64,000 nt of DNA from contig JAHQJS010000004.1 of NCBI GenBank assembly GCA_019057385.1, positions 256,001 to 320,000 on the forward strand. Reading direction: 5' to 3'. This document shows, in pieces, positions 49,471-56,162 of the stretch. The stretch is from Candidatus Borrarchaeum weybense. Its GTDB lineage: Archaea; Asgardarchaeota; Sifarchaeia; Borrarchaeales; Borrarchaeaceae. The stretch's first letter is position 1. Every line of letters begins with the position of its first letter. Made by a program: the position numbers and the translations under genes. The notes beneath the pieces were generated by a model that was not told the DNA's origin, searched no databases, and saw only the letters and a list, made by a program, of their open reading frames with translations.

Positions 49471-50142
49471 ATGTCAAAGGAGATAGAAATTGAGATATAT
49501 GCAGAACAACTTCGAAAAACATTCCTCAAATATACAAGGAAGGCTTTTGAAATATTACCAAAGATAAATAACCCCCGAATTCTTGATATTGGCTGTGGTT
49601 CGGGAATTCCAACTTTAGAATTGGCAAGATTAAGCAATGGTGAGATAATTGGAATAGATATTGATCAAAGTGCTTTGGATGAATTAAAGGAGAAGGCAAG
49701 AAAATTGGGTTTATCTAGCCGTGTTAAAACTATAAATTGTTCATTATTTGAACTTGATTTTGAAAGTGAGAGCTTTGATATAATATGGGCAGAAGGCGCA
49801 CTCGCTCCTATCGGCTTTGAAAGAGCGTTAAAGGAATGGAGGAGACTGCTTAAGATTAAGGGTTTCATTGTGGTTCATGATGATGTGCAAAATAAGGAAA
49901 GAAAACTAAGAATTATTCCAAAATATGGCTATGTACTCATAAATCATTTTCACTTACCTGATGATGTGTGGTGGACTGAGTATTATGAACCCTTAGAAAA
50001 ACGAATACATGAGGTTCGTAACAAACATAAGGACGATCAAAAGGTACCTGAGGTAGTTAAAAGCTATCAAAATGAAATTGACGCATATAAGAAAAATCCT
50101 AAGGCTTTCCGATCCATTTTTTATATCATGCAATTGCGCTAG
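49471..50142 (+). CDS. Class I SAM-dependent methyltransferase (C-terminus altered by insertion)
   Basis: ILDIGCGSG, GIDID, FDIIWAEG. Confidence 0.92.
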   Translation: MSKEIEIEIYAEQLRKTFLKYTRKAFEILPKINNPRILDIGCGSGIPTLELARLSNGEIIGIDIDQSALDELKEKARKLGLSSRVKTINCSLFELDFESESFDIIWAEGALAPIGFERALKEWRRLLKIKGFIVVHDDVQNKERKLRIIPKYGYVLINHFHLPDDVWWTEYYEPLEKRIHEVRNKHKDDQKVPEVVKSYQNEIDAYKKNPKAFRSIFYIMQLR

Positions 50143-50292
50143 GTTTAGATGGTTTAGAGTGATAAAGTCTATAAGTACCTACGGGGCGTAGGGATTTTAA
50201 GCCTGTGGAGATAAGACCTCCGTAACCCGCCAAGGGGATCGAGTCTGTCGCAGAAGCAGGAAGCCTCAAGGCTTTAGCACGAGGTAGCTCAC
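50134..50292 (+). mobile_element. Non-autonomous IS200/IS605-derived mini-element (TnpB omega-RNA/right end only)
   Basis: Ends in an IS605-type hairpin CCTC..GC-TTTA-GC..GAGG then TAGCTCAC; flanked by ATCATGCAA on both sides; no ORF. Confidence 0.75.
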
Positions 50293-50312
50293 ATCATGCA
50301 AAAAACAAATTA
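50175..50312 (+). ncRNA. TnpB omega-RNA (reRNA) scaffold with 3' guide
   Basis: GTACCTACGGGGCGTAGGG hairpin, AAGCCTGTGGAGA ... GTCG..GAAGCAGGAAG, terminal hairpin and TCAC end match the IS605/IS1341 3' consensus. Confidence 0.75.
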
Positions 50313-50417
50313 ATCTTAGAGGTTTTAGTTGGTCAACTAATCTCTAAGATTATTTAATCTATTTAAATGCATTAAACCATTTAGCTGACAGAAGTTAAAT
50401 CAAATTTCTCTATTATC

Positions 50418-51810: not shown

Positions 51811-52132
51811 ATTAAATTTCTCCTTTAGAGCTAAAAACGTGACTTGCAAAAAGCACACTGGCTTACTTTATCTTACTATCTTTAGTTTTTAAGGTTTTTA
51901 AACTCAAAACAACAAAGAACTTCTGATACTAATGAATAACTTCCAATTCTATTTGCCTGCAAGCCCACTGTAGTATTTAGGTTTAATTAACGGCTCATGC
52001 TGCACTCTGTCTTCGTGGGCGATAGTACCTGGCGTATCACCGGATACAATAATTAAATGATAAATTTTTTTAATTAAGACCACGAAAAAAGAAAAAAGAG
52101 TATGGCTTCCTTTGCAGTTTTACAGTTTTTTG

Positions 52133-56061: not shown

Positions 56062-56162
56062 ATAATCGTAAGGTTTGCCTGCAAGAATTGTATAAGCCTG
56101 TTTAGCTTCACTTCCATGTCATTAGTGTTTTAATATTTTTAAACAAAAACAACAAAGAAATC

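Follow-up and report, generated by a model that had tools for sequence, protein, structure and literature searches.

How does an element whose family transposes, according to the textbook description, without duplicating its target (PMC13565253, PMC7290912, PMC3119063) come to lie between two copies of that target? The question is raised by the 3' end of a methyltransferase gene in the window, that is, in the whole 64,000-nucleotide stretch of DNA analysed here. At this place a right end of the IS200/IS605 type interrupts the gene, and the same 9-mer, ATCATGCAA, is found on either side of the inserted DNA, at positions 50125-50133 and 50293-50301, with a start-to-start distance of 168 nt.

A true duplication at the end of a methyltransferase gene

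The interrupted gene (49471-50142, forward strand) is an ORF of 223 codons for a SAM-dependent methyltransferase (223 aa; Pfam Methyltransf_25/31/11, E ~1e-19), whose 3' end reads TTT TAT ATC ATG CAA TTG CGC TAG (FYIMQLR*) with the stop codon at 50140-50142; the final two codons (LR) and the stop are supplied by the inserted element, and the alignments with the orthologues cover residues 1-221 only. Directly 3' of the TCAC at 50289-50292 comes ATC ATG CAA AAA ACA AAT TAA (50293-50313, forward strand), which encodes IMQKTN* and which the initial annotation had interpreted as an in-register alternative C-terminus displaced from the host gene. The orthologues of five related genomes (four congeneric, one of the same class) bear this out, since they carry that end uninterrupted: in G004 (94% amino acid identity), G001, G002, G003 and G005 a single ATCATGCAA-like copy is followed by AAAA(C/T)AAA…, the C-termini being FYIMQKTNLS*, FYIIQKIN*, FYIMQKIK* and similar. 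The empty-site alleles predicted to end in FYIMQKTN* were thus found when looked for, with the 9-mer in single copy.

Because the orthologues carry the 9-mer once, the locus is confirmed as a true 168-bp insertion with a 9-bp duplication, as had been claimed at the outset. The left 9-mer (50125-50133, forward strand), single in the empty alleles, consists of the first 9 target nt, which have been retained and occupy the place expected for the beginning of the element's left end, whereas the right one (50293-50301, forward strand) constitutes the first bases of the would-be guide, the displaced gene end as a whole being the guide region of an omega-RNA module. The AA at the end of the left 9-mer is equally assignable to the element, intact copies of which read GATGAA|TTGCG. 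A 14-mer from the displaced gene end, ATCATGCAAAAAAC, is unique in the source genome.

The left 9-mer is preceded by TTAT (50121-50124, forward strand), a TAM-like target motif. The TAM had initially been given as TTTAT, but this has to be corrected, the family motif being TTAC and TTAT a used variant: other copies follow TTAC and in few cases TTAT or TTGC, and the orthologues L033 and L036 have TTAC where the window has TTAT, both TAT and TAC being Tyr codons.

That the repeat is fortuitous or the product of misassembly has a practically negligible probability. With both strands of the 4.18-Mb genome taken together, 48 instances of the 9-mer are found against 51 expected, and the probability of a chance match at the exact junction is ~1e-5; besides the single-copy orthologue sites, both junctions are carried by Logan contigs of other samples, which rules out the misassembly that the initial annotation had entertained. 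Indeed, records 2 and 8 of X2 span the left and the right junction, respectively, with 0 differences, records 9 and 16 of X3 span the left and right junctions with 5 differences each, and X5, a Logan contig from another, unrelated study, extends 14 nt across the left junction. The Logan contigs X4, on the other hand, represent an empty-site allele, with a joint 50133>50418 and G004-like letters in between. The depth peaks seen over 50176-50290 in the Logan DNA contigs stem from other copies of the element and are not an expression signal; the single RNA run retrieved contains a fraction of 0.10 of the sampled words.

A dead-ended copy of an IS608-like mini-element

The insert proper (50134-50292) had been described as an IS605-type omega-RNA and right end stopping at TCAC (50292), an assignment that holds, some 37 copies in the genome ending likewise. 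Judging from its alignment to these copies, it is a dead-ended version of a ~210-nt non-autonomous, IS608-like IS200/IS605 mini-element. Its first part (50134-50174, forward strand), delimited by alignment to intact copies and by consensus comparison, is a remnant of the left part of the element; the rest (50175-50292, forward strand) is a 118-nt omega-RNA-type scaffold and right end that terminates in GGTAGCTCAC at the same base as the ~37 genome copies and contains the right-end hairpin at ~50263-50285. No terminal inverted repeats were found between 50134… and …50292, and no protein-coding capacity is supported among the ORFs of at least 40 aa, the one that lies inside the insert being a 47-aa antisense ORF (50126-50269) devoid of support for coding.

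The source genome (G000; 4.18 Mb, 37% GC, 8 contigs, archaeal SSU rRNA) harbors ~37 protein-free IS200/IS605 mini-elements ending at the same base, ~17 of which belong to class A (~210 nt) and ~19 to class B (~320 nt); no encoded protein was found among them. The 16S rRNA gene of this archaeon (C5:332567-335232, L097) measures 2666 nt for a 1478-position model and bears a ~1.2-kb insertion, probably one or more introns. In the other 36 copies TTAC (in few cases TTAT or TTGC) is followed by a 19-nt linker ending in AAAG, a hairpin CACCAC-n9-GTGGTG, a TATA-like TTTATATAG and, ~25 nt further on, the 118-nt scaffold, which closes with a second hairpin and GGTAGCTCAC; the right end reads …GCTCAC and the target is TTAC. 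One class A mini-element of a related genome (L075, G004:C100) offers an example of repeat-mediated deletion, having lost 15 bp between two GTGGTG repeats in its left end.

Compared with these copies, homology in the window copy begins only at (AA)TTGCG (50132/50134), so that the left end lacks ~50 nt, comprising the 19-nt linker with its AAAG guide as well as the TnpA hairpin. Only a degraded TATA box is seen (TTTAGATG at 50144-50151 instead of the consensus TTTATATA), its place being taken by two tandem 9-nt units, GGTTTAGA(T)GGTTTAGA(G), at 50142-50158. The scaffold shares 95% identity with the class A consensus and all its predicted pairs are standard. The right junction is canonical, TCAC being joined to the base following TTAT, as expected from insertion 3' of TTAY, whereas the left junction is aberrant and consists of the TAM, 9 nt of target and then an internal point of the element, with an AA (or ATG-AA) microhomology. 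Since the left-end TnpA hairpin is missing, the window copy is to be considered immobile, i.e., no longer movable by TnpA; since the TATA box is degraded, any RNA from it would require read-through of the methyltransferase mRNA.

In IS608 a 19-nt linker ending in AAAG precedes the left hairpin and the right end is TCAA. The present family shares with IS608 of Helicobacter pylori the TTAC target (PMC13565253), the length and the AAAG terminus of the linker and a right end, TCAC, that resembles TCAA, but differs from it in that no cognate tnpA was found in G000 and the elements are tnpB-only or protein-free. Protein-free omega-RNA mini-elements as such are already known (PMC3119063, PMC10055086): like the PATEs of Haloquadratum (PMC3119063) and the PATE-like elements of ISGst (PMC10055086), those described here have no ORF, occur in many copies and possess a right end doubling as guide-RNA scaffold; again like PATEs, they have subterminal hairpins at both ends and need TnpA and TnpB in trans. 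PATE elements make no target duplication (PMC3119063, PMC10055086). Unlike them, and unlike the other 36 copies, whose hairpin-bearing left end starts right after the TAM, the window copy is devoid of the left-end hairpin and lies between the two members of a true 9-bp duplication.

Intact tnpB genes of 436-445 aa are enclosed between the left end seen in the mini-elements and a right end akin to theirs, the stop codon being located 10 nt before the end of the element; the final ~150 nt of these genes can be aligned with the 5' and 3' portions of the scaffold, and the scaffold therefore corresponds to the 3' end of tnpB, as would be expected of an omega RNA. The omega-RNA label rests on this homology to tnpB right ends because no Rfam model matches: neither at the gathering score nor with E relaxed to 10 did matches rise above chance level. 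The single-sequence fold is no better than that of shuffled sequences (z = -0.41), and the stems predicted by RNAalifold are kept in 60-63 of 63 copies with little covariation, the copies being 87% alike; the right-end hairpin does covary between families (CCTCG/CGAGG, CCTCAC/GTGAGG, CCCCA/TGGGG). Pairwise identity amounts to 0.87 in the scaffold, 0.63 in the spacer and 0.54 over the initial 10 nt of the linker; conservation within the mini-elements is highest in the scaffold, and variability in the first ~10 nt of the linker (54% vs 78-87% elsewhere).

One related TnpB has OrfB_IS605 and a Cas12f1-like TNB domain and aligns to the ISDra2 TnpB structures; in an alignment read by eye it displays the RuvC motifs GIDFG, DEN and DRD. 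A related tnpB family in G000 is intact and, by the same reading, endowed with ISDra2-TnpB-like RuvC motifs. The ~41 TnpB-domain matches of the genome stand against a single Y1 tnpA (C7:194221-194586), which belongs to the TTTAA family. No tnpA matching the abundant TTAC family was found in G000, yet TTAC insertions differ between species of the genus. Likewise absent from G000 is a parent tnpB element with the exact 118-nt scaffold, the nearest family having a 149-nt version, and use of the mini-element RNA in trans is therefore assumed.

Left-end duplications recur in the genus

In a first view, based on the 37 G000 copies and 54 loci of relatives, the duplication seemed to be a one-off, the only other copies without a left end (L069 and L089) having no duplication; an unanchored 9-mer scan of 2.5 kb upstream proved uninformative (12 matches vs 8-12 in controls). 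The first view was overturned by a scan anchored at the TAM. When the DNA upstream of 117 right ends of G000 was scanned for a TAM followed by the K nt with which the right flank begins, 9 matches were obtained with K=7, 5 with K=8 and 4 with K=9, the corresponding means in 20 offset controls being 0.4, 0.1 and 0.05; with K=7 a further 5 matches were obtained at 45 right ends in loci of G001-G004 (controls 0.0). Furthermore, 8 of 95 elements with both ends share a prefix of at least 7 nt, while permutation gave a mean of 0.31 and a maximum of 3, none of 2000 permutations reaching 8. Three matches of the scan lie away from any left end and were taken as chance or unresolved, namely C4:508704 (7 nt, 794 nt upstream), C6:339979 and a 6-mer at C6:125775.

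The duplication in the window is thus not an isolated case, at least ten elements belonging to two IS families (TTAC and TTTAA) and four species of the genus having, directly after the left-end TAM, 7-10 nt identical to those with which the right flank opens. The initial annotation had called for a comparison with the guides of other copies; its outcome is that these elements carry guide-matching duplications and ~90% of the copies do not, having instead a full left end after TTAC. In G000 the repeat is 9 nt long at C4:306121-306292 (the window copy) and C4:898888-900284, 7 nt at C4:1153048-1154437, 8 nt at C4:389088-389408 and 10 nt at C7:194102-195885; among the other loci it measures 8 nt at L072 and L091, 9 nt at L046 and 10 nt at L062 and L083. 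At C4:389088 and L072 the flanks partly resemble the canonical linker, so that only ~3 nt are truly informative. Single-copy empty sites are known for seven of the ten loci, i.e., the window copy, C4:1153048, C4:898888, C4:389088, L072, L083 and L091, while the empty sites of many canonical elements read TTAC|flank, with no duplication.

In all scarred elements the right junction is canonical and the left one variable. In nine of the ten, the window copy being the exception, bases of the target stand in place of the initial 7-10 nt of the linker, in register to within ±2 nt, and the hairpin is kept, with a terminal microhomology of 0-6 nt. In the TTTAA family, the only tnpA+tnpB element of G000 begins TTTAA-ATAGACTTGG-CGGAAAG… and has the same 10 bases after its right end; a tnpB-only relative begins TTTAA-TTAGTTCAG-CGGGAAG… and has TTAGTTCAG also after its right end, other members of the TTTAA family beginning TTTAA-CTT(T)ATCGG-CGGGAAG…. 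In two species the tnpA+tnpB copy has preserved the 10-nt repeat; no empty site was found for this element, G004 sharing the insertion and the G001 contig ending at the flank.

These regularities bear on the possibility that the window repeat is a classical target-site duplication, be it produced by a DDE transposase acting on a MITE, by end-joining capture at a 9-nt staggered break or by retro-insertion of an omega RNA. Formally, the 5' truncation and the flanking repeat of 9 bp resemble the products of such events, but the insert has no terminal inverted repeats, its right end falls exactly at the TnpA cleavage site and the left repeat is at the TAM; the other copies are mostly devoid of duplication and, in nine of the ten cases that have one, bases of the left end are replaced roughly in register instead of a flanking repeat being added. 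Moreover, a retro-copy would bring along the guide of its donor and not the local flank. This family of explanations is consequently very improbable, and mobilization of a MITE by a DDE transposase in particular was rejected in view of the lack of inverted repeats and of a fixed-length duplication in all copies.

Several features were encountered at or near these sites. The right flank of C4:1154437 contains 385 nt with no counterpart in the relatives, and the orthologue of the C4:1153048 site in G004 (L104, C117) is element-free and contains a ~35-bp tandem duplication of TAM and target, TTAA-GA(A/G)T(T/C)GTTTTT…TAGTAAGGT being present twice; either cutting and repair or the loss of an element may have left this footprint. 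The site occupied in G000 by a ~320-nt class B element (C4:389088-389408) is occupied in G004 (C57, L084/L111) by a ~200-nt class A-like one, and the left-end starts of the two elements resemble the flank (CACGTAGC and CATTAGC). Elsewhere in the window, a 12-bp repeat, TTTGCCTGCAAG, at 51952-51963 and 56074-56085 brackets a 4.1-kb segment ending in a TnpB-like gene, with a AAAACAACAAAGAA repeat outside this segment at ~51906 and 56146; the 12-bp repeat may be a left-end copy of the right flank of the same kind, belonging to another TnpB family.

A locus copied from a filled allele

The origin of the duplications is illuminated by a compound locus, C7:546894-548855 (L102). Here …GTACCTA-TTTAA-TTCTTTTTTG is followed by ~540 nt of filler, by GTACCTA-TTTAA once more, by a complete tnpB element and finally by TTCTTTTTTG and the right flank; the filler consists of 84 unique nt and hosts a later-inserted mini-element of the TTAC family. 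The empty site of G004 is uninterrupted (…GTACCTATTTAA-TTCTTTTTTG-AT…). The left piece ends 10 nt after the TAM, and the complete tnpB element is preceded by a repeat of the TAM and of 7 nt of left flank (C7:548299). Since the element brought these 7 nt and the TAM along, and TnpA excision carries no flank, this arrangement indicates that it was copied from a filled allele of the same site, and the locus offers the strongest evidence for break repair between empty and filled alleles.

Origin of the duplications

TnpB cuts 15 bp (NTS) and 20-21 bp (TS) from the TAM (PMC8612924), and in TnpB-driven homing the enzyme cleaves the empty site and recombination restores the element (PMC10055086). The left-end duplications could be scars of such events, left when empty sites cut by TnpB are repaired from the filled allele, an explanation to which we attach about even confidence. 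An element-free allele of the site would be cut, ~15-21 bp from the TAM, by TnpB and an omega RNA guided by the flank, and the break would be repaired by copying the element from the allele that carries it. The TAM-proximal stub of the target would be incompletely removed from the left end and would prime synthesis where its last bases pair: the tail (target bases 1 to ~15) would be trimmed until these bases pair with the linker, yielding the TAM, a few target bases and the rest of the left end. The register would normally be kept because the upstream flank is already paired, and overwriting would usually be confined to the initial 7-10 nt of the left-end linker; in the window copy the tail would have paired beyond the hairpin, which would account for the deletion of the latter. 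Only the left side is scarred, as this scheme would lead one to expect, since only the left end of the break, downstream of the TAM, carries a tail unlike the filled allele.

Stubs that are long enough would be cut again, the survivors being of 10 nt or less; tails leaving a match of at least 12 nt would restore a cleavable site, in keeping with the finding that none of the ten exceeds 10 nt. This upper limit fits published data according to which a ~7-bp R-loop state binds without cutting and ~12-16 bp are required for cleavage (PMC12803034). Alternatively, the 7-10-nt range could reflect a fixed enzymatic stagger. The anatomy of the elements, the true duplication, its recurrence and copying from the filled allele at one locus are observations, whereas TnpB as the maker of the break and the re-cutting filter are what we infer from them.

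TnpB homing as described, with a guide equal to the right flank, a target consisting of the empty site with its TAM and repair that recopies the element (Meers et al. 2023, PMC10055086), agrees with this scheme, but is scarless, whereas the products envisaged here would be imperfect and retain a TAM-proximal stub. The initial annotation had considered an insertion route that duplicates the target; the recurrence of such duplications in the genus far above chance speaks for it in a broad sense, but with ~90% of the copies canonical and one locus copied from a filled allele, the duplication is better read as a repair scar than as the mark of a separate insertion pathway.

It is also conceivable, though rather unlikely, that TnpA itself is responsible through aberrant integration, in which right-end transfer (TCAC to the base after TTAY) succeeded, left-end transfer failed and rescue by template switching or microhomology copied target bases. 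The always canonical right junctions, the variable left ones with 0-6 nt of microhomology and the target motif that precedes every duplication are as this would predict. An extra step is nevertheless required to place target bases on the left end, neither the second left flank and TAM at C7:548299 nor the absence of duplications longer than 10 nt is explained, and a tnpA of the TTAC family is absent from G000. All told, repair of a TnpB cut from the filled allele remains the preferred reading.

A different question is whether the seed copies have been selected for. A TAM followed by ~8-9 matched bases falls in the range that allows binding but not cutting (PMC12803034, PMC10705468), and TldRs, which are nuclease-dead TnpB repressors, use guides of 9-16 nt (PMC10705468). 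A TAM with a 7-10-nt copy of the seed might accordingly be a bind-only site for the element's own TnpB-omega-RNA, serving promoter autoregulation, an excision block or TldR-like control of the neighboring gene. Consistent with this are the lengths of the repeats, which match the bind-but-not-cut range (PMC12803034), the 9-11-nt guides of some TldRs (PMC10705468) and the retention of the 10-nt repeat by the tnpA+tnpB copy in two species. We nonetheless regard such a selected function as improbable: the repeat is present in only ~10% of the elements and is made anew at each site, so that a mechanistic origin would be needed anyway, and in the window the arrangement would follow directly from the repair event.

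The TldR-like regulatory reading of the guide seed, put forward in the initial annotation for the window copy, finds no support. Although, as in TldR (PMC10705468), a TAM plus ~9 nt complementary to the guide can be enough for binding, the site is located among the final codons of the gene, at its 3' end, rather than in a promoter, the hairpin is lost, the TATA box is degraded and no dead TnpB is linked to the locus; the one related TnpB inspected among the ~41 matches retains its catalytic RuvC motifs in an alignment read by eye. Membership in the TldR group is therefore unsupported.

A combined view, in which the left-end seed copies (TAM + 7-10 nt) are at the same time natural footprints of TnpB-driven homing in archaea and bind-only sites that could regulate the left-end promoter or block excision, must be considered doubtful. 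Were it true, repeated scarring would also explain the variability of the first ~10 nt of the left-end linker.

Meaning of the duplications

To our knowledge, TnpB homing has been demonstrated only in laboratory bacteria. A literature search that reached only a minority of the subscription journals retrieved no description of left-end guide-seed copies, all the sources on point stating that there is no target duplication. In the archaeal genus considered here, ~10% of the elements keep a 7-10-nt copy of the guide seed beside the TAM and, if the proposed origin is true, the seed copies and the left-flank duplication would represent the first natural sequence footprint of RNA-guided cutting by TnpB followed by copy-repair. 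The signature, post-TAM bases identical to the bases of the right flank, can be searched for in any genome.

Such events can immobilize an element through loss of its hairpin and can, at the same time, patch a disrupted host gene. At the methyltransferase site a modest effect of this kind is plausible: a canonical insertion would have stopped the protein at …FY plus one residue, whereas the 9 retained nt preserve the orthologue-conserved IMQ, giving …FYIMQLR* in place of ~…FYx*. Retention of IMQ may in turn have helped this allele of the methyltransferase gene to persist.
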